IMG/VR virus record: IMGVR_UViG_3300048672_000851 | Location: 1-64,000 of that record | Reading direction: 5' to 3' (one strand) | Length of the DNA stretch: 64,000 nt | Source: a virus | Shown here: in pieces, positions 6,726-52,736 of the stretch | Layout of the letters: each line of letters opens with the position of its first letter | How positions within the stretch are numbered: position 1 is the stretch's first letter | Program-made: the position numbers and the translations under genes | The notes under the pieces: generated by a model | Seen by the model: only the letters and a program-made list of their open reading frames with translations | Databases searched by the model: none | Told to the model about the DNA's origin: nothing

Positions 6726-7652
6726 ATGGACATTAAGCGTTTAAAACAAGAAGTGTTAGAAGACATGTACTCTAGAACCAATAACAAATTGAGAATACTC
6801 AAGGAGATAGAAGGTTCAGAAGAACTCTTAGAACACATTGATAAAGTAACGTTAGAGGTTATTAACTGGCTTAAAGAACCAGCTAGTTATACTTCATTAA
6901 ATATCCTTAAAGAACGTATGGTGAAGTATAAGCCAGATGATATTAAGGAACTGATTATCGAGGTGTTTAGCGTGGTTCTGTTTGATAATAGAGCCAAGAC
7001 TATTCAACAGGTAGCTGGTGCTGGCATACCATTCTTTGCTGATACATTTCTACCATTTGATGCTGTGAAAATTACAGCAGAAATAGTGGGTATTATGTGC
7101 TCATTGGATTTAGTTGATGTTATTCCAGCAATGGAAGGACAGACTGAATATACAATGGTGCAAACTGATTATGAATTGACTCAAGATATTATTGATAAGA
7201 TTCATGAAACTAAGTATATGCCACCAATGATTGTGAAACCAAATCATGTAAGAAAGGTTAAAGATAATGCTTATCTAACCTTTAAATCTAACATGATTCT
7301 AGGAGATAAACACAATCAACATGATATGGGTATTAGCTTGGATGTAGTTAACATTCAAAATAGTATCCCATTACGATTAAATGAGTTTGTACTTGGATTA
7401 AGAGAGGAATCCAGCAAACCATTAGATACACCTGAGAAGATTCATAACTTCACACGTATGACTTCTGCTAGTCGGGATGTTTATAACTTGATTATGGAAA
7501 CAGGTAATGTTTTCTACAATACACATGCATTTGATATGCGTGGAAGATTGTATAGTCAAGGTTATTATGTCCATATTCAATCAACTGAATACAAGAAAGC
7601 TCTGATAGATTTCTACTATCAAGAGGTAATTACACACGAAATTGAGGAATAA
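6726..7652 (+). CDS. RNA polymerase II subunit 1 (N4 gp15-like)
   Basis: YMPPMIVKP and FDMRGRLYSQGY (DxRGR) motifs. Confidence 0.9.
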   Translation: MDIKRLKQEVLEDMYSRTNNKLRILKEIEGSEELLEHIDKVTLEVINWLKEPASYTSLNILKERMVKYKPDDIKELIIEVFSVVLFDNRAKTIQQVAGAGIPFFADTFLPFDAVKITAEIVGIMCSLDLVDVIPAMEGQTEYTMVQTDYELTQDIIDKIHETKYMPPMIVKPNHVRKVKDNAYLTFKSNMILGDKHNQHDMGISLDVVNIQNSIPLRLNEFVLGLREESSKPLDTPEKIHNFTRMTSASRDVYNLIMETGNVFYNTHAFDMRGRLYSQGYYVHIQSTEYKKALIDFYYQEVITHEIEE

Positions 7653-7656
7653 AGTG

Positions 7657-8646
7657 ATGCAATTATTTAGCGGTATTGATTACATTAAGATTGCTGTAGC
7701 AAATGCTTATGGTTTAGACCGTGAGAACTGGGATGTACGATTAGATTGGTTTGACCGTCATATCAATCATTTACCAGCTATGATACCTACAGCAAAAGAA
7801 CCAATTAAATATCAGAAGGCATTAAAGGCATTTGATGATGCTTTGAATTACCGTCCTACTGGTTATTTAATGGAATTAGACGCAACTGCGTCTGGTTTAC
7901 AAGTATTTGCTGCATTAACTGGCTGTCATGATACGGCTCGCAATACAAACTTACTACCTAACTACGACAGGCTATGTCCTTACAACAGCACAGCATTAGC
8001 AATGTCTGCGCTAAGTAATAAAACATTTAGCCGAGATGAAGTTAAGAAACCATTAATGACGGTGTTCTATGGGAGTAAAGAACAACCTAAATTAATATTT
8101 GGTGATGGTACAGATGAATTAAATGCTTTCTATGGTGCATTAAACCAAGAGTTTAAAGGTGCAGTAGAAGCATTGGCTGATATTCAAAGCTGTTGGCAAC
8201 CAGACCAAGATTACCATTCATGGACATTACCTGATGGCCATGTTGCTTATGTTCCTGTTCGTGTTGATGAAACCAAAATCATTGAAGTGGATACACTAGG
8301 TGGTTTGAAGTTTACTCAATCTGCAACTGTAGTGGCTCCAAGTGAATCAGGCATATCACTGGCTGCAAATATCGTTCACTCTGTGGATGGTTACGTATGT
8401 CGTGAAATGATTCGTCGTTGCTATGCCGAGAACTTTCGTATTCTAACTGTTCACGATGCATTCTTTGCATCTCCGAATAAGATGAATCGTGTTCGCTTTC
8501 ACTACAAGGAAATCTTGGCCGAGATTGCAGAATCCAATTTGTTATCTGAAATCTTGTCCGAAATCTGTGATGAACCTCTTGAGTTCACAAAGTTTAGTCT
8601 GGATTTAGGTTCTGCTATCCGTGAATCCAACTATGCCCTGTCATAA
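7657..8646 (+). CDS. RNA polymerase II subunit 2 (N4 gp16-like)
   Basis: LDATASGLQ (motif A), RDEVKKPLMTVFYG (motif B), ANIVHSVDG, VHDAF (motif C), C-terminal YALS. Confidence 0.95.
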   Translation: MQLFSGIDYIKIAVANAYGLDRENWDVRLDWFDRHINHLPAMIPTAKEPIKYQKALKAFDDALNYRPTGYLMELDATASGLQVFAALTGCHDTARNTNLLPNYDRLCPYNSTALAMSALSNKTFSRDEVKKPLMTVFYGSKEQPKLIFGDGTDELNAFYGALNQEFKGAVEALADIQSCWQPDQDYHSWTLPDGHVAYVPVRVDETKIIEVDTLGGLKFTQSATVVAPSESGISLAANIVHSVDGYVCREMIRRCYAENFRILTVHDAFFASPNKMNRVRFHYKEILAEIAESNLLSEILSEICDEPLEFTKFSLDLGSAIRESNYALS

Positions 8647-9454: not shown

Positions 9455-9528
9455 CTAGCAGTCAGGCAGGCGGATAGTTCTATTGGCCGGAGCTTAGAAA
9501 TAAGCTCCACTCATTAAAAGGGAATACG

Positions 9529-9732
9529 ATGTTACACAAATTAGTAAATCGTGTTCTTAGCTTATTTGGATACTCACTAAAACCTTACACGTTTTATGAA
9601 GCTGGGTATTTAATAGAGGTGTTGCAAAGTATTCACAAACCTTGCAACGAATATCAACCTACATGCAGTGAAATGCCTTTTACTGCATCTGATATTGAAC
9701 TAATTACGCACGTTGTGGGGATGTGTAAGTAA
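9529..9732 (+). CDS. Hypothetical protein
   Basis: ORF with AGGGA RBS. Confidence 0.5.
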   Translation: MLHKLVNRVLSLFGYSLKPYTFYEAGYLIEVLQSIHKPCNEYQPTCSEMPFTASDIELITHVVGMCK

Positions 9733-10960
9733 TTAGCTCTATTCCGAATTGAGCTAGGATAAGATAAAATTACGCCGCATTCTGCGTTTTATTGTTAGTT
9801 TCTTTTTGAACTAACAAGGGTAAGTGGAGACTAGTTCTCCACTAACTCCATTAAAAAGCTTATTAGTTAAGTTCCCATTTTCTCTTGGGTTCCTCAGCTT
9901 AGTTAGTAAGCTTTTTAATGGGGTTTGGTTTCTCCATATTAAAATGGTGTGCTAGTAAATAATGCTAATCCATGCTTTATCGTAAGATAAAGAAGCCGAA
10001 GCTTAGGGAATTTTCATTTATTCACTTAAGACGTTGAAAGGTCGGTAATAATTATTTACAGATTAAGATAGCTACCTCCTTGGTTATGCTTAATCCGTTG
10101 GTTACTACGCTAGTGTAACTAAACTGGATGTAGTGGTTGTGTTTATGGCTTGCAACTAGGGGTAAGCACAATCACTCAGTTTATTAGCTTGGTGTTTCGA
10201 CATTTTGATTAAATAAACGTATGTGCTCATAACTCATAAAGGTTGTTTAGTTAACTTGTTCCGCCAATACTGGTCGGTTATGGGTCTGGTAGAAACACCA
10301 AGACTAATGAGCTGGTAACTCAGAGTGGGTATTAAGGGAATCCCACAATTCGTCAATGTTTGCGATGATAGTTGCATTTAAATATAAATGCTAACGATGA
10401 TATGTTCCGCGCTGTAGCCTAAGAAACTACTCGCCCAAGATAGTAACTTGGTTTAAAAGATAACTCGAAGTCCATCGTTAACGGACACTTAGTTTATTGG
10501 TTTGGTGTTTGGTACCCGACGAAAAGTACACTCGTTGCGGTCGAAGCGGCCAGACACCAAAACCAATAAGCTGATAGCTTAACCGAGCAAATGCTAGAGA
10601 TTATTCTGGCCAACGGTTGTAGGTGACGATGGGTGATATTGGAACCTTCATTTTAGTTTATTGAAGTTGGTTTATAGTTGTAAGAGACTTTGCGGCACCC
10701 TCTGCGTAAAAATCCTATAAATCAACTTCAATAAGCTGAAGGTACAAGTGGTGATTGTACGGAATTTACCTATCGTGTGTGATGAAGCGCCTGTGACCTT
10801 GGTGACAAGGGGATCAGTGACAGGTAGGCGGCCTATAAGCCGGGCAATAACGCCTTAATGTCGTCATCTGGAAAACTCGTAGAATGGCGGTTATATCGCT
10901 ACGAATGAAACACACAAGCCACATAAACTCACCAGTGGCCAGCTTATCTAATCAGAGAAT
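9733..10960 (+). ncRNA. Cluster of structured non-coding RNAs
   Basis: No credible ORF for 1.2 kb; four 22-30 bp stems and many short hairpins; mismatches are mostly G-U compatible on + strand. Confidence 0.75.
10350..10434 (+). ncRNA. tmRNA-like mRNA-like domain (PK1 + tag frame ANDDMFRAVA* + H5)
   Basis: Pseudoknot TCGTC/GATGA + AATGT/GCATT, then ATAAAT|GCT AAC GAT GAT...GCT GTA GCC TAA with the stop in a GTAG/CTAC hairpin loop. Confidence 0.7.
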
Positions 10961-10966
10961 CCAATC

Positions 10967-11272
10967 ATGCTTAATCCCTGTGGCCTTGATAAAGGCACTA
11001 TTAATTATCTACGTAAAATATCTCTATACGGAATGGATAACAGGTATTCAGACTACTTTCAAACAGAAGTAGTTAATTCAACAATTTGTAAGAATATCCA
11101 AATTGATGTTTTAAGAGATAAATCAAATCCTGATAAAATAGTTGTAGTTAAATTAGGTGTTAATTTTAAAGTTTATAAAATAGAACCCTATTTAATCTAT
11201 TCTGTTATAGATGAAATTTTAAAAGAATCCAATCATGGCGCAACTAAGCAAAAATCTTATCCATCAAGTTAA
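10967..11272 (+). CDS. Hypothetical protein
   Basis: First ORF of a coupled gene run. Confidence 0.6.
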   Translation: MLNPCGLDKGTINYLRKISLYGMDNRYSDYFQTEVVNSTICKNIQIDVLRDKSNPDKIVVVKLGVNFKVYKIEPYLIYSVIDEILKESNHGATKQKSYPSS

Positions 11273-12701: not shown

Positions 12702-12776
12702 GCGCCTATAGTGTAATGGATAGCACACAATCCTTCTAAGTTTGGAGTAAAGGTTCGATTCCTTTTAGGCGTGCCA
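12702..12776 (+). tRNA. tRNA-Arg(TCT)
   Basis: Acceptor GCGCCTA/TAGGCGT, D arm GTGT/GCAC, loop CT-TCT-AA, GGTTCGATTCC T arm, encoded CCA. Confidence 0.93.
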
Positions 12777-13904: not shown

Positions 13905-14213
13905 GTGTCTGATGAACCAAAAGTAGTTACCATTGATATTTTACAAGATTACAGAAACCAGAACATTGTTACTTTAAGAGAAAAAATGTTTGCTGAGTTA
14001 GCTACTTTTGGCAATAGTAAAACTAAGTTAAACATAAGTGATTACGTAGTTAGGTCTAAAAGAACCAATAAAGACTTTAGGTTAACTGTTAGCCAAACAA
14101 TAGATTTAATTCAGTTAGCTTTAGATTTATCTGAAAGTGTTTTATTTGAAGACAATGAAAACACAACTGAATTAGCTTCACAAATTCTAGAAAAAATTAA
14201 GGATTCACAATGA
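13905..14213 (+). CDS. Hypothetical protein
   Basis: GAGGT RBS, GTG start. Confidence 0.65.
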   Translation: MSDEPKVVTIDILQDYRNQNIVTLREKMFAELATFGNSKTKLNISDYVVRSKRTNKDFRLTVSQTIDLIQLALDLSESVLFEDNENTTELASQILEKIKDSQ

Positions 14214-14818
14214 ATACTGGTTTTATTAATGGTTATCGTTGGGGTATTGAGTATCCGACGAATGGTAAGAAGCCGGATTTGGCGAATGATGTTTTAGTAG
14301 ACGTTAAATGTAAAAAGGGTAGCGGCGAATGGCAGGGCTGGACAGATATGACGGTTGCAGATACCGCATGGACAGAAGCACAAAATTATATCTCAGCTAC
14401 AAGTTTTAAGATTATCGACGAACGCTACAAACCATCAGATACGAGCTATTTAGACGCGCCAAATGTCAAGGAATCCTTGATGGATGAGTGGTACGACTAC
14501 GACAACCAAAAAGCGATTGCGTTGCCTAAGGCTGGTGAGTATTGCCAAGTTTATTTAAACGGTTGGTATAACTGCTACATCGTCGGGCTTGATGATTTAG
14601 GTGGTTGCGTGTTCAGAAAAGATGGGGAGTATATGCAGCGAATTACGGATGATTCATTCCGCCCGCTTGACCACAACCGCAAATCTGAAGCAGAGAAAAA
14701 GCGGGTTGTTGATGCTGCCATGTCAATAGTTGTTGATGCGCATATGTTAGAGGACATTCTTGGTTCTTTATACGACGCAGGCTATTTGAGACTGCCAGAT
14801 ACAGATAAAGGGGAATAA
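14210..14818 (+). CDS. Hypothetical phage protein
   Basis: 202-aa ORF, visibly richer in GC and CG than flanks. Confidence 0.7.
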   Translation: MNTGFINGYRWGIEYPTNGKKPDLANDVLVDVKCKKGSGEWQGWTDMTVADTAWTEAQNYISATSFKIIDERYKPSDTSYLDAPNVKESLMDEWYDYDNQKAIALPKAGEYCQVYLNGWYNCYIVGLDDLGGCVFRKDGEYMQRITDDSFRPLDHNRKSEAEKKRVVDAAMSIVVDAHMLEDILGSLYDAGYLRLPDTDKGE

Positions 14819-42462: not shown

Positions 42463-45400
42463 CTATTTGATAGCCGCTAGTGTTAGAGTTTCCCCAATTG
42501 CTGACAAGATAATCTCGATAGCATTAGTTAAACGGTTTAGTAAGTTTTCTAATGTCAGCATTGTATCGTATGGATCTTCAATATCCCCTAAACCATACTG
42601 GCTTACAGCAGAGAACAGTACAGTTAATGGTTTATCAATTGCCAATTTCACTAATACTTTCTGAGCACGTAAAATGTACTTAGTAAAGATCATAAAACCA
42701 ATCTTATTAAACATACTTATTAATGGGTGTGTAGCATAGTCATAGTCTACATAAGTTTCCATTACATCATCTAAGTTTTGTTTATCCTCCATCCCTTCCT
42801 CTTTATTGTGCATATAAAGAGCGTATCTAGCAGTAAAATCACCCATCTGAACCATCTTAAACATTAATTTGTAAAGACGAGTATCATGAGTCATTAAACC
42901 AGTCTTAACCAAATCAGTGATTACATCTGGAACTTTATCAGTTACATTTTTGAACTTATCCATCAATTCAGTAGAGTAACTAAACAAGTCATTCTCAGAA
43001 TCCATGTCTTCTACAACAGTCTGGAATACACCATTCTTAATTAAGAAGTGGACTGGATTAGAATGTACTACTCCTTCCAACTCTAGTTTACGTGATATGG
43101 CTTCCTTACGTTCTTCATCACTTAAATTTTTAGCTTCTAATTGTAAGTTTAACTGGTCAATTTCATGAACCATACGCATATACTGGTTCGTGTAGTTAAA
43201 CCCTTCAATCATTCTGGTAATAGTTTTTACTAAGCTGCCTGTTTTCATAGAAGTCAGCAATACGTTTGACATAATGTTTGCTAAACCAGTAACACCAGAT
43301 TTAACTACAATAATGTCTTTGGCCATACGCAACGCTTCATAAGTCATATCTTCGTAGCGCATAAATTTAGAATTACGAGCTAACTTATCCATTGACTCAG
43401 TAAATGCATTATTAAAACGTTTATGCATAGACTCAGTTAAGTCATTAACTCTCAGTTCTCTAAAACCAAATACATCATTAATGCTTCTGGCTCTGACATA
43501 CATACCTTCTTCACCCCAAGTATCTTTAATAGCTAATTGGGTATCGAAAGGTAATTTATGCCATAGTTCACGCATTTTAGGGTCAGTAGACTGTCTACCA
43601 ATAAACACATACTGTTTAAATTCACCTGCTCTATCTTTATACTTATCAAAATCCTTTTTAAGTGAATTAACAGCTAATCTGTTTAACAGTTTAGTGTTTA
43701 CCTTATCTTTAGAGTGAGCCATTGTAACGCCAATGGTTTCCGCAAATGAAGGTTGTAACTTCAATACATCCACTCTTGTTTTGTGCAGCATTTCATAACG
43801 GTAGTTAACTACTTTACCTTTATCAGTGTACACTGGGTTAGCTACGTTAACTTCCTTAGTAAAGTTACCTTTTAACTGTTCTTCAATTTCACGCATGGCA
43901 TTATCTTTGTAAGTTTTAATATCATTTTTACCAGTAATGAAATTTTGTACTGAACCAGTTCCATTTAAGTTAGCTACATCAATTAAATCAGTACCACTTG
44001 CTGTTTCAGAAGTGAACGACATAACACCAGCATTCAAGGTAGCTAAACCACCTACAGGATCAACCAATACATACATTTCTGTAGAATTAGGATCTAACGG
44101 GTCTTTAGGAATTGGATTTTCATAAACCAACTCTTTACCTTGTGCAACTAGTTGATCAACTTCATCCTGATTATGTGCAAAGATTAAGCTACGTTTAGGA
44201 TGCGTAATATCAGTTACATAACCTTTCTTAGTTTGGGTTTTATTATTACCAAACAAGAATTGATTAGAGTACTGAACAGATTTAGCTTGTAAAGCAACTG
44301 AGCCTTCAAAAGCTTCTCTGTTATTAGCAGCCAATTCACTAAGTTCTTTACGTTTACCAGAAAACTTCAGTGCATAAATAGAAGCCAATTCATCAATGAT
44401 TTTCTCAGCTAGCTTCTTATCACCATTAGTTTTACCAATACCCATTGTAGTTTTCAAACTAGCAATCAAGTAAGCATTGTTAGCAGAACAGTTAATTAAA
44501 TGCTTATCTGTTTGCATATAATGACCTAAACTTGAAGCATGTTCCTTGTAGTAATTAGCAATTTCTGGTTCAAAGTTGTCATCTAATTGTTTTTTCAACT
44601 CAACAATACGAGCATTCAAATTTTTATCTGACTCTATTAATTGAACCAGTTGATCAAATGTGTAATCTCCTTCGCGTACAAACCAACTCAAGTCAGATTT
44701 CATAACACCATAGTACAATGCTTCATCTGTAGCTTTGCTCAAGTTACCTTTAAACAAATCTTGTACTACAAACTTTTTAAGGTTAGTTCTTACGTTAATA
44801 CGCATAGCATCAATGTAACGTTGAGATACCTGACGCAAGTTATGCACTACACTAGTACGTTCATTTCTACCCTGAATTTCACGACCAGCAGCAGCTAAAA
44901 TAGCTTGTTCATCGTGAATCAGTTTACTCATTTGAGTATCAATTACTTCGCTAATAGATTTACTGTTAGCATGACCCAAGTGCATTAAAGATTTAGTCAA
45001 CTTATTCAGAATATAAACAGGGAATCCAGTAACAGTGTTTGGATTAGCGTTGTTAGTTGCAATTGCAACCTTTCTCATAGGTTCTGATGTTAAACTTCTC
45101 TTAATTGCATCTTTAGTTTTGTTATTTAAATCAAACTTACCTTCATAAGAAGAAATTGTATTTAACAAGTTCTTTTCTTGTGTTTGGGTCATTTGCTCCA
45201 TTAACTTCATAGCTTTCTGGTGAGCATTACTACCTTTAGGATTAGTAAAGTAATCTTGAATTACATTCATGTATTCAAAGATTCTACTAACTAACTCAAC
45301 TACAAAGTTACCTGCTTGTATTACAAAACTAGACTTAGCATTAGAAGGAGTAGGTTCATACTTCCTGCCTTTATTAAATGCAGCATTCAATTCTTTATTT

Positions 45401-48400
45401 GTTTCTAAGATACGAATAAAGTTTTGATTAGTTGCAACATGAGCTAAGAATTCAGAGAATCCGTTGTGCTTAGTCTCTTTTTCTTTTACACCTGTAATTG
45501 GGTTAGCCACAATACGAGTGCTTGATTCAGTGTTATAAAACACGTAATCATACATCTTTTGTGCATCTTCAATTTGTTCTTGAGTTGGGTTAGCAATCTT
45601 ATTGCCATTAGCATCAAACTCAATTAAGTCTTCTGGCTTAATGTGTTGACGAGCTAACTCATACAGGAAGCGTAAGCGTTCTGTATGCTTGTTCTTAAAG
45701 TCTACAAACGGTTCTAAGATGTGGTGGATCATCTCATGAGCGAATGTCTCAGCATCGCTCATACCACGCCGCATCAACGCTGGTACAGTCTTAAGCTTCA
45801 ATCGAGCCGTCTTAGTTTCTTCGGAGTAATCACCTCTAGTCCGGTCAGTACCCTTGGCCAATAGGACTGTTACTGGCTCCATGACTTTACCTACCTGCTC
45901 TATAACAGCCTTCAATCGCTCCATATGCTCAGTATTAGTTGGGGTAATATCTTGAGCCTGTAAGTCCTCTAAGGTCTGTAAAGTTTGATCTGTAGTGGTA
46001 AGAATCTTTGATCCAATAGTAGTAAATGTACCCATCTTATCCGCAGACGAACCCAGAGAATTCTTGATTTCTTCCTGAATGTTTAAGTAGTTATCTTGAG
46101 TTGAATCTAACTCAGGTCTATCAATTGCATTCTGCTCATACACGACACCAGATAAACCGTATTGACCAAATGAACCAATTTCGTCTATCAGCTTTTGTTT
46201 TACTTCTTTGTTGTCAATTCCTTTACTTGCTCTTGCATCAATGAGTGTCATTACATACTTAAGACCCTTTAAGCCACTAAAAACAACTTCATTGGTGCCA
46301 TAACCTTCCGACATTTCAAAGACGTTTTCTAAGTAATGCTTAGTCTTAGCATCAGCATTCTTTAAGTAATTAGACACAGCAAAACTAAAATCACTGGCCA
46401 TGTCATAAACACTTTCAGAAATACTGAACTTTTCATTCACTTCTTTAAAGATTTGGTTCATGCGAATAATAGCTGCTTCAGCATCTTTAGGAGCTACTAA
46501 TACAGCATCGTTCAAGTTATAGATGTTAAACTCAGCCATCATTTCACTGATAACAGCAGCATCTAAATTATGGATTAATACTGGAGCTACACCAATCTTG
46601 TTATTACCCCAAAACATTAAGTTATCCATTTCAGGAACAATTGGTGCTGATTTAACTTCACCAACAGTACCATTCTTATTAAACACTAATGGATTTAATG
46701 GATTAAAACTAATTTTACCTATGGTGTTTTTACCAAACAGTAATTCTCTTGGGTTAACTACCACATTCTGTAAACTGATGCCTTTACTATTAGCTGCTGC
46801 TTGCATTACGTTGCCAAAGTAACGAGCTAAGTAACCTTCTTTAAAACCATTGTTTTCTGCAATGTTAGCATCATTAACAAAACCAGACTTCTCCATCCAG
46901 TCTTCTCTATCAGAGTAAACTGGTTCAGAAGCGTAACCTTTGAAAGAAGGAACCATTTCTTTTATGGATTCCATAATTTCTTTGTGTGCTTCTTTAGACA
47001 CATGGTAAATACCTTGGTCTTTAACCTTGTTAAGATACTTACGTACTTCTACATGGTAAATAACACCAAATACTTCATTAATTTTATATACAACGTCGTT
47101 TACTGCACTACGAGCATTATGTAATTCAGGGAATGTCTCTTGCATAGTTGTATTAAGCAAGGAACCATAAGTAAACTGAATTGCAACAGCAAACTTATCA
47201 AATTGCTCTTGTGTGAGCATGAAAGTATTAGCGTGGTTAATGTCAGCTTTTAAATTAACATTCAAAATAGCAGACATATTGCTTAAATAAGCTTTGTATT
47301 GCTTACTGATTTCTGCACGTTCTTGCTGTGTATTTACTTCACTGTACTTGTCTTTAAACTTAGCCAGTTCACTATAGAAATTATCTACAGCTTCAGTAGC
47401 AAAGTTACGTGCAATAGAAGCTCTACCAGCATTGTAGTTCCATGTCATTAAAGGAGATTTAGCGTAGTTACGCCCAGCTTTAGTTACTTTACCTTCAGCA
47501 TCAACTAAATCACCTACTAATGTAGAAATTGCTTTTAGTTTTTCTTTGAACTTGTAATTCTTAGTTAGTTCTAAACTAACAAGGATTTCTTCTTCCTTAG
47601 TACGATTAGGTTTCTTGCTGATTTTATAAATGTCTTTAGCCAGCTTATTAATTTGTAAATCATCGCTAACCATATCATTAAGGTTCTTAGCGATTAACTG
47701 ATAACTATCCATTGCACCTTGGCCATAGTATTCAGCCAAATCACGAAATCCAGACAATACGCCAGTTCTGTTAAGCTGCTCTTTATAATCAGCAGTAATA
47801 CCTCTTACGTATTGAATCAAACTGAAAGCAAAACCGTTAGTTTTACCATCCACTTCTAATGTCAAATCAGAAGTAAATTTACCGTTACTACGTAAGCCTT
47901 GACGATAATTAGCTAATGCTTTTAAGCCAGCTAATAAATGTAGTTTGGTTCCATATTTTTCATTTAGAGCCAAAATAGATTTAATATTTACTACTTCGCC
48001 TTTAGACAAAGTATCGACTTCATCAAGAGCTTTTTGAACCAAATCTGATTCATAAATATCTTTAAACTCTTGTTTAATTCTTTCTGGACTCCATACGTCA
48101 ATCTTGCCATCAAAAGCAGCAACAACAGCATGTACAAAGAAGCCTAAGTTATTTACATCGTATTCTGTTTTCCAGTTAGCATTGCTGACTAACCAACGAT
48201 GCACTTTAGACTGCATAGTATCAATCTTGTTTGCAATACCGTATCGACGGTTAGCATAAGTAACATTTTCCAAGAAGAAAGTTTTTAAACCCATCTTCAT
48301 TAGATTTTTAAATGTTTGGATCTCTTGCTTAATACCATCACCAGCAGCTTCAGCACTTTCTTTAGCAGTAATATGACTCTTTTCAAATTTTACACCATGA

Positions 48401-51400
48401 GTACCAGAAGCTAATTGTTGTTGTTGTAATTCATCCATATTCATGAATACATCTGCAACATCAGCAATAGTGTGTGGTTGTTCATTCTGTCTTTGTAGTT
48501 TATTTACCAAATCAGCAGGCAGTTTTTTATTGCTACGTTTAATTTTATTAGTAGCTTTTACTGGTTTACGATGAACAATAGATTTACTTAAGTCTTCACC
48601 AGCAAATAGACTATCAATTATTTCACCATTAACAGCTAAGCCATTAATTGCAATTTGAGTATCTTCATACAACTCAGAACCCGGTTTAATGCGAATAAAG
48701 TTCACATCATCATTACGTGCTCTGTTTTGTTTGTTCTGGCTTGTTTGGTTGGCTTCTTTAACTAAGTATGAATCCAATGAAACCTTATTTACTTCGAACA
48801 AACCCATTTCAACCATAGTGTAAAGAGCAGCTAAGCCTAAACCAGTTACTAACTTCTCTTTACCAAATTCAATTCCTTCCACAGAAATGCCAATCATATC
48901 AACTACACGTTGACCAATTTCATCAGCATACATATAGACAGGAGTGCCTTTATCGCGTAAAGCCTTAGCTACTACTGCATCTACTGGTTTTTTTTCTTTC
49001 TTCTTCTGAATAAGGTTAATTGTTTTGTCATCATTCAAAATAGAAGTTAAAGTTGAATTGTTATTTAATTCAACTAAAGCAGCATAACCTAGAGCAGTAC
49101 TGATATTTTCATTCAGCACTAAATTACCTTTAGTATCTTCTTCTAAGAACATAGCTAATGGATTTTGAGTTCTGAAGTAATCACTCAGCGTATCTTTACC
49201 TGATTTATCTTTAAAAGATAAAGCAATTTTAGCTGATAATGATTTATTGAACTTATTCACAAAATGAACAGCATAAGAAACATCTTCTAGATGTTCTTCT
49301 TTTATCTTGTTCTCACCTAAAATGTAACGTAATACATGACTATCTTTCTTGAGTTCGTCTTTAATAGTACTCAAGAAATTAGGAATGTTAGTTAGGTTAT
49401 TGCTGATCTTTTTGTTGTTAACCTTAAATGCTGAACCAAGCTTATTCAATGTTTCAAACATCTTGTCAAAAACACCTTCAGGCTTAGTAATACCAGCAAG
49501 TAAATTCTCACTGTTATTTTCTTCTTCAAGAATAGAAGTCAATAATGCTTCAGCACTAGAGTTGTTTAATTCAACTAATGCTTTCTCATGTAATAACTGA
49601 GTTTCACTTGAATAGTTAGATACATCTAAATTAGACAGCAGATTTTTCAATTCTAACTTAGTTTGTCTTACTACTTTAGTATCAATACCACCTTTTAAAT
49701 CACCACTCAGATTTTTATATTCTTTAAGGAATTTAAGAGTATTCACATTCTTTGGTTTCAGTCTTGCTCGTTTAGCTTTTTCTTCTGCTTTAATTTCTTC
49801 TTGTTCAGCAGCAATTTTATCAGCTTTACGCTTGTCTACTCGTGCTTTGATTTCATCAAAGTTAACTTTACCAGCAGTTACAGATTTTAATGTAACTGGG
49901 TCTTGTTCTGGCAAATCTACAGTAGGTTCTTCTTGTGTGTCTTCTACTACAGGAGCAGATTCTACTTTTACTGGCTCTTTGGCCACTATAGATTCTACTT
50001 TAGGTTGTTCAACCACTGGACTTACAGAAGCTTCCATTACTGTGTTGTCTTTAACACCTAGAATACCTGACATATATTTATGAGCAGCATCAATAATTGG
50101 TTTTTCAATTACCAAGTTATTGTACATTTCTCTTTGTTTATCGGATGCTCTGTTAGCATCAATAAAAGACTTAACAGAAGCTAATGTAGAATCTGTTCTG
50201 TTCTTTAGCTTAGTTACACGTTCATAAGTATTCTTAGACCAAGTATCATTCTTCTCAGCTAAACTTGTGTTAAAGCTGTTCATCAAGTCTTTAATGCTAC
50301 GAATTTGCTTAGCTCTCCCAGCATCTTCGTTATTACCTAAAATATCTTTACTTACTTCATTTGTACTTCTTTCATCAAATAAAGATTTGTACTCACGATA
50401 AGCATCAACTGTTTCTTGTACTTGTGCTCTGATATTTTCATCAGGAATTTTGTTAATGTCATCATCAGAGAACGAATCAATACTAGAGCCAAGCTTTCTA
50501 AATAAACCTCCTGCAACTTTATCCATTTCTGGATCATTGCTCTTAAAGTTCTGGAATTGTTTTTTCAGAGTTTCAACACTTAAGTCTGAGTTGTTGAATC
50601 GCAAAACAATGTGTTTTACGTTAGCTACAATGTCATCATAATCAGATTTAGCATTAACTAATTCTTCTTCTAGCTTAGCTTTTTCATCTTCAGAAACAGA
50701 AGCATCCTCTAATTGTTTTTGGATTTCTTCTGTTCTAGTTTCTAAATTTGTTTTAGCTTCTTCACGTAATTCAATTGCAGTAGCAGCTAATTCCTCAAAA
50801 TCTTTTTTCTTTGTGATTTCTCTAGACAATACTGTTTTAGAAGATAAAGCTTGGATTTTATCTTTAATTGGAGCATCCAGTTTTACAATAGCTTCCTTGT
50901 CATTTTTATCTAATAATTCAATGACTTTACTAAATACTTCTGGATTAGCGACTTCTGATTTTTCCTTCTCATAAGCCTTACTTTCAGCACGTTTTTCTAA
51001 CTTGTCTGAAACAGCCCCTAAAGCCTTCTTAGCCATTTGTCCGGCTACTGGGGCTTCGGCTAGGGTAGTAGTTGCACCCGCTGTAATACCGCCTGCCAGA
51101 GCACCATAAGCAGCAGCATCACCAGTGCCTTTATATAGGTCTTGATCAGGATTAGTAGTTACTTGTTCAGCCTTGTTCTGGCCAACAGCACCACCGATAC
51201 TTTCAGCAGCTTCCTGAACACCTTCAGCAAGCGTACTACCAGCCACTTTGCCAGTACTACGAAGAAGACCCTTCTCAGTACCTGTATCAACCAATAGACC
51301 GAAGCCTGAGCCTTCCAGCTTGCCTGTACGAGCTAACTTGGTACTGGCCAATGACACTAAGGCAGAGATTGATCCAGCATTAACAAATGCTCTTTCTGCC

Positions 51401-52683
51401 AGTGCATACTTAGCTTCTTCTTCAGTTAAACCATCGCCAAGTAAATCACGGTATTGTTTGCTTTGTTTTAGCTTTTCAATTTCTGTATTTAAGATTCGTT
51501 CTTTAGCATCAATAGCATTAGATAAACCTTCTTGTGCCATGCTTACAGTTAAGCCTGAACCAGCAGTAATTTTAGCTAACTGCTTCATGCCTTCTTCTGT
51601 TTTAAGGAACTCTTTACTTAATTTAGAAACTTTAGCTGCGCTATATGCACCCGGAGCCAAACTAGATAATAGTGATTCACTAATGGTTCGTTGTAATTCA
51701 ACGGGTGAATCTAATAAGTAAGCACCTGCATCAACAAAGGATTGTAATTGAGCAGCAGTTTTATCTGTCCATTCAATTTTTCCTTTCTCTGCCAAGGCTT
51801 GCAAATATTTCGCGTCTACGTTCGCTTGTCGCTCACTTGACGCTTCATTTGCAAGCCTTGCTGAAGCCAACTGAGAATCTGAACTTAGATTATCATTTAC
51901 AATTTCTTTTGTTTTGCCGAAATCAGGACGTAAGCTAACACCAATTGTACTTTTACCTGCTTTATCTAAAGCTAAGCCTAAATCAATTGGTGCAACTTCA
52001 TCTTTAATTTCTGGAATAAAAGAACCATCTGGTACAGTAATACTTGCACCACTAAAAGGCATTGCTGCAACTTCTACAGCAGCATCTAATGCTTGAACGC
52101 CTAAATCAGCAGCACCATAAGCAACTTGGCCTAAACCAATACCACCTTGAATAGCCACATCTTTGATGTTATCTGCTACTGCTTCAGATGTAGTTCTTCC
52201 ATCAACAATGTTTTGTTCAAACTGTGCTGTAGAGTCAGCATTTAGATATTGATCTAATGTAATGCTTGCTGTCTCTTGAGCTTGCTTATCTAATTCAGCT
52301 TGTGCCAATTTCTGAGCAAGAAGCTGCTCCGGTGGAATAACTTCTACTGGCTTAGGGGTTGGATGTAATTGTTCTTTAACTTTAGCTAAGTGATAACCAA
52401 GCACTGAACCAGAATCAATTTCTTTATTAACCCGCTGTTCTTCTTCATAATCAGCCATCAGTTGATTTGGATTAAACGGTGCAGGTTGATCACGTATTGG
52501 CTGCAATTCAGATTTAGGATTAAGCGTAGGTTTAATCGCATTTTGGAATACAGATTTTTCTGCTAAAGCTTGTTTTTTGACTTCAGAAATAGAAGCTACT
52601 TCAGCTTTCTTTTGCTCGGCTGTCTGAGCCAAGACATTGAACATACTGGTTAATGGGTCATTCTGAGTAGGTTTGTCTGACAT
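42463..52683 (-). CDS. Virion-encapsidated RNA polymerase (N4 gp50-like)
   Basis: ~3,400 aa; LEVDGKTNG (motif A), RNYAKSPLMTWNY (motif B), NLNDAV (motif C region), HEMIH; almost no Cys; start re-called to 52683 after AGGAG. Confidence 0.95.
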   Translation of the reverse strand: MSDKPTQNDPLTSMFNVLAQTAEQKKAEVASISEVKKQALAEKSVFQNAIKPTLNPKSELQPIRDQPAPFNPNQLMADYEEEQRVNKEIDSGSVLGYHLAKVKEQLHPTPKPVEVIPPEQLLAQKLAQAELDKQAQETASITLDQYLNADSTAQFEQNIVDGRTTSEAVADNIKDVAIQGGIGLGQVAYGAADLGVQALDAAVEVAAMPFSGASITVPDGSFIPEIKDEVAPIDLGLALDKAGKSTIGVSLRPDFGKTKEIVNDNLSSDSQLASARLANEASSERQANVDAKYLQALAEKGKIEWTDKTAAQLQSFVDAGAYLLDSPVELQRTISESLLSSLAPGAYSAAKVSKLSKEFLKTEEGMKQLAKITAGSGLTVSMAQEGLSNAIDAKERILNTEIEKLKQSKQYRDLLGDGLTEEEAKYALAERAFVNAGSISALVSLASTKLARTGKLEGSGFGLLVDTGTEKGLLRSTGKVAGSTLAEGVQEAAESIGGAVGQNKAEQVTTNPDQDLYKGTGDAAAYGALAGGITAGATTTLAEAPVAGQMAKKALGAVSDKLEKRAESKAYEKEKSEVANPEVFSKVIELLDKNDKEAIVKLDAPIKDKIQALSSKTVLSREITKKKDFEELAATAIELREEAKTNLETRTEEIQKQLEDASVSEDEKAKLEEELVNAKSDYDDIVANVKHIVLRFNNSDLSVETLKKQFQNFKSNDPEMDKVAGGLFRKLGSSIDSFSDDDINKIPDENIRAQVQETVDAYREYKSLFDERSTNEVSKDILGNNEDAGRAKQIRSIKDLMNSFNTSLAEKNDTWSKNTYERVTKLKNRTDSTLASVKSFIDANRASDKQREMYNNLVIEKPIIDAAHKYMSGILGVKDNTVMEASVSPVVEQPKVESIVAKEPVKVESAPVVEDTQEEPTVDLPEQDPVTLKSVTAGKVNFDEIKARVDKRKADKIAAEQEEIKAEEKAKRARLKPKNVNTLKFLKEYKNLSGDLKGGIDTKVVRQTKLELKNLLSNLDVSNYSSETQLLHEKALVELNNSSAEALLTSILEEENNSENLLAGITKPEGVFDKMFETLNKLGSAFKVNNKKISNNLTNIPNFLSTIKDELKKDSHVLRYILGENKIKEEHLEDVSYAVHFVNKFNKSLSAKIALSFKDKSGKDTLSDYFRTQNPLAMFLEEDTKGNLVLNENISTALGYAALVELNNNSTLTSILNDDKTINLIQKKKEKKPVDAVVAKALRDKGTPVYMYADEIGQRVVDMIGISVEGIEFGKEKLVTGLGLAALYTMVEMGLFEVNKVSLDSYLVKEANQTSQNKQNRARNDDVNFIRIKPGSELYEDTQIAINGLAVNGEIIDSLFAGEDLSKSIVHRKPVKATNKIKRSNKKLPADLVNKLQRQNEQPHTIADVADVFMNMDELQQQQLASGTHGVKFEKSHITAKESAEAAGDGIKQEIQTFKNLMKMGLKTFFLENVTYANRRYGIANKIDTMQSKVHRWLVSNANWKTEYDVNNLGFFVHAVVAAFDGKIDVWSPERIKQEFKDIYESDLVQKALDEVDTLSKGEVVNIKSILALNEKYGTKLHLLAGLKALANYRQGLRSNGKFTSDLTLEVDGKTNGFAFSLIQYVRGITADYKEQLNRTGVLSGFRDLAEYYGQGAMDSYQLIAKNLNDMVSDDLQINKLAKDIYKISKKPNRTKEEEILVSLELTKNYKFKEKLKAISTLVGDLVDAEGKVTKAGRNYAKSPLMTWNYNAGRASIARNFATEAVDNFYSELAKFKDKYSEVNTQQERAEISKQYKAYLSNMSAILNVNLKADINHANTFMLTQEQFDKFAVAIQFTYGSLLNTTMQETFPELHNARSAVNDVVYKINEVFGVIYHVEVRKYLNKVKDQGIYHVSKEAHKEIMESIKEMVPSFKGYASEPVYSDREDWMEKSGFVNDANIAENNGFKEGYLARYFGNVMQAAANSKGISLQNVVVNPRELLFGKNTIGKISFNPLNPLVFNKNGTVGEVKSAPIVPEMDNLMFWGNNKIGVAPVLIHNLDAAVISEMMAEFNIYNLNDAVLVAPKDAEAAIIRMNQIFKEVNEKFSISESVYDMASDFSFAVSNYLKNADAKTKHYLENVFEMSEGYGTNEVVFSGLKGLKYVMTLIDARASKGIDNKEVKQKLIDEIGSFGQYGLSGVVYEQNAIDRPELDSTQDNYLNIQEEIKNSLGSSADKMGTFTTIGSKILTTTDQTLQTLEDLQAQDITPTNTEHMERLKAVIEQVGKVMEPVTVLLAKGTDRTRGDYSEETKTARLKLKTVPALMRRGMSDAETFAHEMIHHILEPFVDFKNKHTERLRFLYELARQHIKPEDLIEFDANGNKIANPTQEQIEDAQKMYDYVFYNTESSTRIVANPITGVKEKETKHNGFSEFLAHVATNQNFIRILETNKELNAAFNKGRKYEPTPSNAKSSFVIQAGNFVVELVSRIFEYMNVIQDYFTNPKGSNAHQKAMKLMEQMTQTQEKNLLNTISSYEGKFDLNNKTKDAIKRSLTSEPMRKVAIATNNANPNTVTGFPVYILNKLTKSLMHLGHANSKSISEVIDTQMSKLIHDEQAILAAAGREIQGRNERTSVVHNLRQVSQRYIDAMRINVRTNLKKFVVQDLFKGNLSKATDEALYYGVMKSDLSWFVREGDYTFDQLVQLIESDKNLNARIVELKKQLDDNFEPEIANYYKEHASSLGHYMQTDKHLINCSANNAYLIASLKTTMGIGKTNGDKKLAEKIIDELASIYALKFSGKRKELSELAANNREAFEGSVALQAKSVQYSNQFLFGNNKTQTKKGYVTDITHPKRSLIFAHNQDEVDQLVAQGKELVYENPIPKDPLDPNSTEMYVLVDPVGGLATLNAGVMSFTSETASGTDLIDVANLNGTGSVQNFITGKNDIKTYKDNAMREIEEQLKGNFTKEVNVANPVYTDKGKVVNYRYEMLHKTRVDVLKLQPSFAETIGVTMAHSKDKVNTKLLNRLAVNSLKKDFDKYKDRAGEFKQYVFIGRQSTDPKMRELWHKLPFDTQLAIKDTWGEEGMYVRARSINDVFGFRELRVNDLTESMHKRFNNAFTESMDKLARNSKFMRYEDMTYEALRMAKDIIVVKSGVTGLANIMSNVLLTSMKTGSLVKTITRMIEGFNYTNQYMRMVHEIDQLNLQLEAKNLSDEERKEAISRKLELEGVVHSNPVHFLIKNGVFQTVVEDMDSENDLFSYSTELMDKFKNVTDKVPDVITDLVKTGLMTHDTRLYKLMFKMVQMGDFTARYALYMHNKEEGMEDKQNLDDVMETYVDYDYATHPLISMFNKIGFMIFTKYILRAQKVLVKLAIDKPLTVLFSAVSQYGLGDIEDPYDTMLTLENLLNRLTNAIEIILSAIGETLTLAAIK

Positions 52684-52736
52684 GGTTTTCACTCTCCTAG
52701 ATGATGCATCAAGCATACCCCAAGAGATGATCCAAG

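Follow-up and report, generated by a model that had tools for sequence, protein, structure and literature searches.

A widespread family of RNA hairpins with a conserved foot and exchangeable inserts in uncultured freshwater phages

RNase III cuts the leader-trailer helices around 16S and 23S rRNA as well as T7 early RNA, and takes part in the processing of the T4 tRNA cluster. To our knowledge, the tRNA clusters of phages and the unexplained RNAs in them are largely uncharted; the stable RNAs of T4, for example, are still without an assigned function. Here we describe an array of four long RNA hairpins (H1 to H4) in the first 64 kb (64,000 nucleotides, hereafter the window) of the 77,494-b IMG/VR virus record IMGVR_UViG_3300048672_000851. 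Hairpins H2 to H4 are members of an undescribed RNA hairpin family that is widespread in uncultured freshwater phages, and H1 is a diverged relative of it. A family member consists of an 8-bp basal helix, AGYUUAUU/AAURAGCU, an upper stem of 12-20 bp and an unrelated insert. The members are located in non-coding stretches of stable RNA, next to tRNA genes. About 30 further copies were found in freshwater viral and metagenome contigs and in one prophage of Rheinheimera soli.

Among the closest described elements are the RNase III helices of the 16S and 23S leader-trailer regions, of T7 and of the T4 tRNA cluster. These are likewise two-turn duplexes that flank cargo RNA, are polycistronic with tRNAs, carry wobble pairs on the transcribed strand and punctuate the transcript. 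The hairpins described here differ in their invariant 8-bp foot, which is shared across unrelated phages, in the short and hypervariable RNA that they enclose, in a second conserved partner of the 3' strand, and in that their cleavage is only predicted. A similar architecture is found in the YrlA Y RNAs that act with Ro60/Rsr, some of which occur in phages: a long stem formed by the ends, a conserved protein-binding foot and a variable or tRNA-like module on top (PMC4201824). Here, however, there is no TROVE/Ro60 gene, no in-register GNCGAAN0-1G motif and no Rfam match. A Y RNA was rejected as a candidate, as neither the phage record nor either of two Rheinheimera genomes contains TROVE/Ro60 (PF05731) and the motif is absent as well. 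No description of the element was found in the literature on phage Y RNAs, on structured phage RNAs near tRNAs, on Rheinheimera phages or on RNase III leader-trailer stems. What is new is thus the hairpin family; processing and closing helices of stable-RNA operons are known already.

The hairpin family and its carriers

The window phage is N4-like, as follows from an open reading frame (ORF) of the size of the virion RNA polymerase (3,417 amino acids, 42463-52716) and two N4-type RNA polymerase II (RNAP II) subunits (6726-8646). The array occupies 1.2 kb without credible ORFs, and the flanking genes are all on the + strand. It contains the following hairpins:

9733-10966, + strand: non-coding small-RNA array between the ORFs 9529-9732 and 10967-11272 (from the ORF list; dense fold)
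9844-9925, + strand: hairpin H1, 30-bp stem, boxes AGCTTATT (9857-9864) and AGTAAGCT (9905-9912) inside a 13-bp outer extension
10175-10316, + strand: hairpin H2, boxes 10178-10185 and 10306-10313, 23-bp stem, branched insert of ~90 nt
10488-10575, + strand: hairpin H3, consensus arms, boxes 10491-10498 and 10565-10572, insert of ~40 nt
10652-10740, + strand: hairpin H4, boxes 10655-10662 and 10730-10737, fully covaried upper stem

All four fold on the + strand where the initial annotation had placed them, with outer stems of 23-30 bp (30, 23, 25 and 25 bp for H1 to H4). Their minimum free energies (MFE) are -41.2, -49.8, -42.5 and -35.5 kcal/mol, with z-scores against dinucleotide shuffles of -9.7, -5.5, -7.0 and -7.5; none of 200 shuffles folds as well, and the - strand folds are weaker by 11-15 kcal/mol. 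In line with the G-U bias noted earlier, G.U pairs number 5, 3, 4 and 3 on the + strand against 0, 0, 2 and 0 on the - strand. The conserved end boxes were also recovered, on the 5' side at 9857, 10178, 10491 and 10655, and on the 3' side at 9905 (AGTAAGCT), 10306 (AATGAGCT, both read in the sequence), 10565 and 10730, the last two being scored as - strand matches in the box count. AGYTTATT occurs 29 times in the window, a count that none of 100 shuffles attains (expected 12.7 +/- 3.4); eight of these occurrences fall within 1.24 kb, from 9499 to 10737. The inserts of the four stems differ from one another, as had been proposed. The accompanying statement that the rest of each stem differs too fails for H2 and H3, which share most of their upper stem (GGUGUUU/AAACACC), the most frequent variant in the family.

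The family was collected by an exact scan with the 17-mer of the H3 5' arm, followed by extraction of the copies and by a covariance model, R1, built from 24 of them. The scan returned 27 IMG/VR contigs, ~22 of which have a matching 3' arm around a quite different interior. R1 recovers the scanned copies at 58-77 bits, with the sense strand always ~20-40 bits above the antisense strand, and adds diverged copies in loci L018, L025, L037 and L039. In the window it scores H3, which has a bulged A after the inner 7 bp, at 67.8 bits, H4 at 49.3 bits and H2, in which two arm positions are compensated relative to the family consensus, at 61.4 bits on the + strand and 27.0 on the - strand. H1 is not picked up by R1; in a relative, the change 9866 G>A turns a G.U pair of H1 into an A-U pair, and 9880 T>C falls in the loop. 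A three-hairpin array is present in the metagenome contig L068. Exact 17- or 20-mer matches without a hairpin, in L015, L020, L027, L032, L035, L038, L043, L058-L066 and L069, were set aside as chance matches.

The comparison with Rfam that the initial annotation had called for gave no match of the stems to any Rfam 15 family, and in 15 carrier loci only tRNA passes the gathering score. Blastn searches of 50,697 GenBank phages with the region, with H3 alone and with the non-coding kilobase of L019 did not find the stems; the matches were a 46-nt tRNA-cluster motif (see below) and one chance match. The initial annotation had considered the element in the setting of N4-like phages, but it is not a trait of that group: among the carriers checked, just two are N4-like, and the rest include unrelated phages of 43-59 kb and the Rheinheimera prophage. 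The second N4-like carrier is a complete genome of 73,253 b with an RNAP II 55% identical to that of the window phage, whereas complete genomes of 53.6, 54.8 and 58.8 kb have the hairpin but not that polymerase; a provirus is a further carrier. L003, a more distant N4-like relative and the one locus that a protein search with the RNAP II subunit yielded, has no hairpin. Hairpin sites were also observed in lambdoid-type early regions, between a CII-like gene and the replication genes, and directly behind a large terminase gene. A single copy is present in every complete genome checked, the R. soli prophage (L042) has one pair, and the four hairpins of the window form the largest array seen; in the host genomes no copy was found outside the prophage.

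Selection on the pairing is evident from an alignment of 31 copies, in which the stem was specified by us and compared with 500 shuffles on five measures. Paired cells amount to 94.8%; a shift of the partner by 1-3 columns lowers this to 30-52%. Compensatory changes in homologues, on which the initial annotation had made its proposal depend, are present: 14 of 22 stem pairs show two-sided changes, and all 500 shuffles fall short on each of the five measures. None of the eight basal pairs is ever changed on both sides, and one of them is a U.G in 27 of the 31 copies. It follows that the foot is under constraint for its sequence, the upper stem for its pairing only. Upper stems are wholly rewritten yet complementary in H4, L018b, L025b, L037b and L039b. 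Outer stems measure 21-32 bp, mostly 22-25, which provides the ~20 bp or more of double-stranded RNA on the transcribed strand that characterises an RNase III site. The sense fold is the more stable one in 30 of the 31 copies, and G.U pairs number 116 on the sense strand and 16 on the antisense strand. The tRNA genes near hairpins lie on the hairpin sense strand in 10 of 10 cases, as do nearly all of the nearest ORFs, and in L030, L036 and L039 the hairpin, including a 3-nt flank, ends 1-4 nt before a tRNA. The proposed selection on the + strand RNA is thus borne out by the G.U asymmetry, the covariation and the co-orientation with genes and tRNAs.

At 70% identity, the 35 copies contain 31 classes of insert. 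The median insert length is ~54 nt; after trimming, lengths range over ~10-130 nt. In L023 the insert and the inner 7 bp of the arms make up a tRNA-Leu(CAA) according to ARAGORN, with the arms as acceptor stem and the conserved bulged A in the discriminator position; Rfam does not call this insert as a tRNA. The inserts of L022 and L029 contain D- or T-arm sequences. No matches of the structured inserts were detected elsewhere.

Linker modules and a second partner of the 3' box

The array is made up not only of hairpins; the stretches between and behind them contain further structured modules:

10350-10434, + strand: module between H2 and H3 resembling the tag region of transfer-messenger RNA (tmRNA), with a pseudoknot, an A-rich spacer, an ORF (10390-10422) and the stop codon in a hairpin loop
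10470-10486, + strand: small hairpin, GTCC and GGAC around a 9-nt loop, just upstream of H3
10585-10650, + strand: tRNA-cluster motif between H3 and H4, with GAGCAAAT, a variable hairpin (10593-10610) and a nearly invariant 40-nt 3' part (10611-10650)
10742-10760, + strand: hairpin with stem GTACAA/TTGTAC and loop GTGGTGA, 3 nt after the H4 3' box, in D-arm position
10761-10914, + strand: variable core of the closed module, between the H4 3' box and the solitary box
10918-10939, + strand: 5-bp hairpin, GCCAC and GTGGC around a 12-nt loop, directly abutting the solitary box, in T-arm position
10940-10947, + strand: solitary box CAGCTTAT, perfect Watson-Crick partner of the H4 3' box

The initial annotation had the 3' boxes pair with the 5' arms, which stands, and it overlooked a second partner further downstream; with this partner the stems form part of tRNA-like closed modules. 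An unpaired box, CAGCUYAU, lies 30-200 nt beyond the last hairpin in 16 loci and is the perfect Watson-Crick complement of the 3' box. The Y of the solitary box always matches the R opposite it in the 3' box (16 of 16 loci; 7 A with U, 9 G with C), and the hairpin's own 5' arm always has a U opposite that R. A hairpin of 4-6 bp precedes the solitary box with a gap of 0 or 1 nt in 14 of the 16 loci; in 11 it has at least 5 bp and no gap, compared to 15% at random positions. The abutting stems covary (GCCAC/GUGGC, GCCUC/GAGGC, GCGCG/CGCGC, GCAGG/CCUGC), and L041 has GGTTCGAATCC, a canonical T arm, in this place. At the other end several loci have a hairpin with the loop GUGGUGA or GGCUGA 2-3 nt after the 3' box; in L022 and L031 the loop is that of the window and the stem is GCGCAA/TTGCGC instead of GTACAA/TTGTAC, so that two pairs covary.

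Since the 3' box is complementary to a solitary box that directly follows the hairpin in T-arm position, it closes the next module in the manner of an acceptor stem, and CAGCTTAT may be taken as the 3' strand of a terminal, acceptor-like helix. With two complementary partners, the 3' box is one strand common to the hairpin and the terminal helix. Of total energies of -42 to -103 kcal/mol, forcing the terminal helix takes just 0-7.5 kcal/mol (2.5 kcal/mol for the window), and the energy gap between the two folds is within the model error. Within the array each 3' box can also pair with the next 5' arm, so each segment, whether insert or linker, is bracketed by complementary boxes.

The closed modules resemble tRNA and tmRNA in the 7-9 bp helix of 3' box and solitary box, in the hairpin 2-3 nt after the 5' strand, in another one abutting the 3' strand, in the canonical T arm of L041 and perhaps in the tmRNA-like tag frame of one window module. 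In contrast to tRNA and tmRNA, they have no CCA end, no cloverleaf and no score with tRNA or tmRNA models, and a variable core of 30-200 nt takes the place of the anticodon arm. Aminoacylation of the closed modules is unsupported.

The module between H2 and H3 follows the order of a tmRNA tag region, namely pseudoknot, A-rich spacer, Ala resume codon, some 10 codons with non-polar residues at the end, and a stop codon in a helix loop. Its ORF reads ANDDMFRAVA; the tmRNA tag of R. soli, a member of the host genus, is ANDETYALAA. In the near-identical relative X12 the changes 10401 T>A and 10403 T>C give ANDETFRAVA, which is nearer to the R. soli tag. Rfam scores 10350-10434 at 14.1 bits with the tmRNA model (gathering score 47), over model positions 82-140 only, and at 19.5 bits with permuted tmRNA, below gathering. 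A complete tmRNA was rejected as a candidate: its tRNA-like domain (acceptor stem with G3.U70, T arm, 3' ACCA) is detected neither by ARAGORN, which calls no tmRNA, nor by Rfam, in which the scores remain sub-threshold. A Smith-Waterman comparison of the region with the R. soli tmRNA was not above shuffles. Within the H3 insert, 10516-10538 agrees at 20 of 24 positions, with one gap, with the part of the R. soli tmRNA that encodes the tag; as shuffles score no lower, the likeness may be due to chance.

The small hairpin just upstream of H3 is compensated in X12, in which 10471 T>C together with 10485 A>G turns a U-A into a C-G pair, and it recurs with GCCC/GGGC in L040 and L041. The tRNA-cluster motif between H3 and H4 (~65-110 nt; GCAAAY, a variable hairpin and the nearly invariant 40-nt 3' part) is separate from the hairpin family and occurs much more widely. 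It occurs in Xanthomonas phage JGB6 (93.8% identity over 48 nt) and Pseudomonas phage HU1 (92.7% over 41 nt), is unannotated in both GenBank records and is not in Rfam. Eight IMG/VR contigs contain it, mostly within tRNA clusters and four times immediately after the encoded CCA of a tRNA. The copies outside the window are:

L004, 2459-2545: tRNA-cluster motif
L005, 2478-2543: tRNA-cluster motif
L006-L013: tRNA-cluster motif

L013 has a second, degenerate copy in tandem.

Exchange of modules and candidate roles of the stems

Contigs from other freshwater runs that were aligned to the region include the near-identical relatives X2, X4 and X12, and a comparison with these shows cassette-like exchange at the arms. 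In X2 the stretch 10344-10490 is unchanged, after which H3 continues as an L021-type hairpin with an L021-type insert. X12 keeps the arms of H3 and both flanks and has 10511-10551 rewritten; conservation is far higher in its inter-stem modules than in the H3 insert. In X4, H4 is swapped for another hairpin, with a loose end at 10729, and in X2 and X4, contigs of two runs, the core 10761-10914 is replaced by 75 other letters with its edges kept. Substitutions in the conserved parts are few and respect the structure, with 10601 lying in a loop. Similar relations exist among the other loci: L018 and L019a have the same insert behind different upstream flanks, and L017 equals L019 minus everything between the two hairpins of L019. 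The locus thus shows that stable-RNA regions can consist of exchangeable structured modules joined by one conserved helix, a helix that is common to lytic N4-like phages, to unrelated phages and to a prophage of the same freshwater host community.

We favour, as about an even chance, the explanation that the stems act in cis to punctuate a polycistronic transcript of stable RNAs and to help it mature. The 5' arm, weak through its U.G wobbles, would hold the basal strand until the true 3' partner has been transcribed. Alternatively or additionally, the duplex of about two turns would be cut by a host double-strand RNase, after which RNase P and exonucleases would finish the ends. For this cut RNase III would be the likeliest and most economical guess, considering the two-turn stems and the precedents in rRNA, T7 and T4; no RNase III gene was found in the phage. 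This would set free the modules between the stems, and possibly the inserts as well, as individual stable RNAs whose ends are paired. For the window, the modules in question are the tmRNA-tag-like module, the tRNA-cluster motif and the closed module of ~200 nt. Because the same arms are present in every phage of the community, they may double as recombination joints for the exchange of inserts and modules.

Several observations speak against this explanation. The steps of cleavage, hand-over and product release are each inferred. RNase III of the E. coli type needs no fixed sequence, so an invariant foot with a conserved U.G is left unexplained; a sequence-specific partner of the 8-bp foot may exist. 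The full hairpin is still the predicted MFE structure in 15 of the 16 units, the closed modules of 10 loci get no tRNA score in Rfam at E<=1, and for H1 to H3, inside the array, the next partner is merely another 5' arm of the wobble type and not a perfect box. The covariation counts, 14 of 22 pairs included, are inflated by kinship among some of the loci. Finally, some inserts are conserved across different phages with pairing-preserving changes (L018/L019a, L040/L068c), and inserts are therefore probably functional and not filler.

This last point is readily accommodated if the hairpins themselves are the products, a reading that we consider unlikely. The stem would then be a scaffold, its foot bound by a specific host or phage protein, that displays interchangeable small RNAs, for example tRNA-like decoys or aptamers; these would counter host systems aimed at tRNA or translation, and an arms race would drive the insert turnover. 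Such a scaffold overlaps with the maturation elements that we favour and differs in the identity of the product. An invariant foot with a conserved U.G is a typical determinant of protein binding, the inserts are structured and some of them tRNA-like (L022, L023, L029), and a scaffold fits the many insert classes, their replacement among near-identical phages and the neighbouring tRNA-Lys-type genes that vary only the anticodon arm on one body. However, no binding protein was found, the phage is without genes for TROVE/Ro60, RtcB or RNase III, and no gene is consistently linked to the hairpins. Moreover, most inserts are without any tRNA feature, the one in L023 is not called by Rfam, and X12 conserves the inter-stem modules far better than the H3 insert. 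The exchange exactly at the arms could also originate at the DNA level, the arms being terminal inverted repeats of a mobile or recombining cassette, similar to attC sites or to miniature inverted-repeat transposable elements (MITEs), or else recombination hot spots, with the RNA hairpin as a by-product. The Correia and ERIC MITEs are transcribed into hairpins. The same arms in unrelated phage backbones, the relation between L017 and L019 and the strict Watson-Crick covariation of 3' box and solitary box, which equally suits DNA symmetry, are compatible with such repeats. The MITEs of Neisseria (Correia) and of enterobacteria (ERIC) likewise have inverted repeats of 20-26 bp that form hairpins when transcribed and are then cut by RNase. 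They differ in their shared interior, their occurrence in both orientations and their target duplications, whereas the interiors are unrelated here, the orientation is fixed and follows genes and tRNAs, there is usually one copy per genome, and no target-site duplication is visible at H3 or H4; a MITE was rejected as a candidate on these grounds and on the number of insert classes. A terminal repeat recognised by a protein would, in addition, not need the two-sided changes by which diverged copies keep their pairing. The bias of the mismatches towards G.U on the sense strand (116 against 16) also speaks against such repeats. No transposase or integrase is linked to the hairpins, and we know of none in N4-like phages. 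A DNA-level origin is accordingly, in our view, distinctly improbable.

Arrays in which conserved repeats alternate with variable segments that turn over among close relatives are also known from clustered regularly interspaced short palindromic repeats (CRISPR) and from integron attC cassettes. The arms of the hairpins, in contrast, are inverted and pair across their cargo, and there is no cas or intI gene and no GTTRRRY core. A CRISPR array was rejected as a candidate, the conserved parts not being direct repeats and the only true array seen, of type I-F, lying in the host locus L044. The initial annotation's description as a non-CRISPR arrangement of end boxes and variable cargo agrees with this, and the arrangement recurs in the ~30 other copies. 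A role as transcription signals, be it as hairpin promoters of the N4 virion RNA polymerase, as terminators or as antiterminators, was considered in view of the N4-like phage with its virion RNA polymerase ORF and RNAP II subunits, and we deem it very improbable. The N4 early promoters are DNA hairpins with stems of 5-7 bp and 3-nt loops, whereas here the stems have 23-30 bp and the inserts 30-130 nt; a virion RNA polymerase promoter was rejected on these dimensions. The same hairpins are found in phages that lack N4 polymerases, the stems are not followed by a U tract, and consensus scans of the region for sigma-70 promoters and terminators were at background.

To return to the maturation elements that we favour, a more far-reaching version can be put forward, which is possible though we would not expect it to be correct. 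In a plug-and-play system of RNA cassettes, a universal 8-bp helix would bracket every stable-RNA segment. Unrelated small RNAs (tRNA-like, tmRNA-tag-like, decoys) would be swapped among unrelated phages of one host community, with the arms as sites of recombination and one common machinery for maturation; an arms race against host defences that target tRNAs or translation would account for the hypervariability of the inserts. Should the stems be maturation signals, they would provide a new and easily recognised grammar for finding the small RNAs of phages in metagenomes. Should the inserts be the products, the locus would be a hypervariable RNA locus with a logic comparable to that of protein anti-defence islands. 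The system is testable, as a cultured strain of Rheinheimera soli has the two-hairpin prophage copy.

Surroundings of the array and links to the host

The sole tRNA gene of the window, tRNA-Arg(tct), is located at 12702-12776. No tRNA or tmRNA was called in 9733-10966 by ARAGORN or by the tRNA model of Rfam, and in the whole window only tRNA reaches the gathering score of Rfam 15. In E-value mode, Rfam returned for the region miRNA-type long-hairpin noise and weak tmRNA matches, and nothing else. The sequencing runs that contain parts of the window are freshwater metagenomes. Among the runs listed as containing the region there is no RNA run, a single wastewater run labelled 'RNA-Seq' being probably DNA. 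Relatives in two freshwater runs join 9478 directly to 9818, with 9479-9817 gone, and hence are without the 67-amino-acid ORF 9529-9732 and without the small hairpins before H1.

No gene was found that is linked consistently to the hairpins. One protein family (31-45% identity, PHROG 3483, function not assigned, no match in Pfam or in the protein atlas) is common to six hairpin loci of different phage types:

window, 14210-14818: PHROG 3483-type protein
L021, 1818-2534: PHROG 3483-type protein
L029, 4308-5237: PHROG 3483-type protein
L014, 5690-6592: PHROG 3483-type protein
L030, 8141-9097: PHROG 3483-type protein
L040, 8365-8904: PHROG 3483-type protein

In L021 and L029 it is encoded by the first gene after the RNA stretch; distance and strand vary among the six loci.

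The tRNA genes near the hairpins include one tRNA body, with the same acceptor stem and T arm, that bears differing anticodon arms in different phages:

L040, 5068-5140: shared tRNA body
L030, 667-740: shared tRNA body
L023, 13090-13164: shared tRNA body
L028, sense strand 8451-8530: shared tRNA body

Two of the anticodon arms are Lys(UUU), another has the ochre-suppressor anticodon UUA, and one has an enlarged loop, taken by ARAGORN for a 4-base anticodon. Directly 3' of three different tRNAs, in L023, L030 and L039, a conserved module of ~85 nt starts with CCACCAGCAGATGTGAGCC and represents another building block common to these RNA stretches. In the prophage of R. soli strain 4138, a tRNA-Arg(tct) (L042, 2528-2604) comes right after the second hairpin, the two hairpins and this tRNA gene spanning ~975 nt.

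A type I-F CRISPR array of 87 spacers is present in Rheinheimera sp. A13L (L044, 2706-7928). One spacer is identical to a hairpin 5' arm plus its flanks, spacer sp41 matches a non-coding RNA stretch of L019, L022 and L026, and several others match phages of the L017, L019 and L036 types, which links these phages to Rheinheimera.

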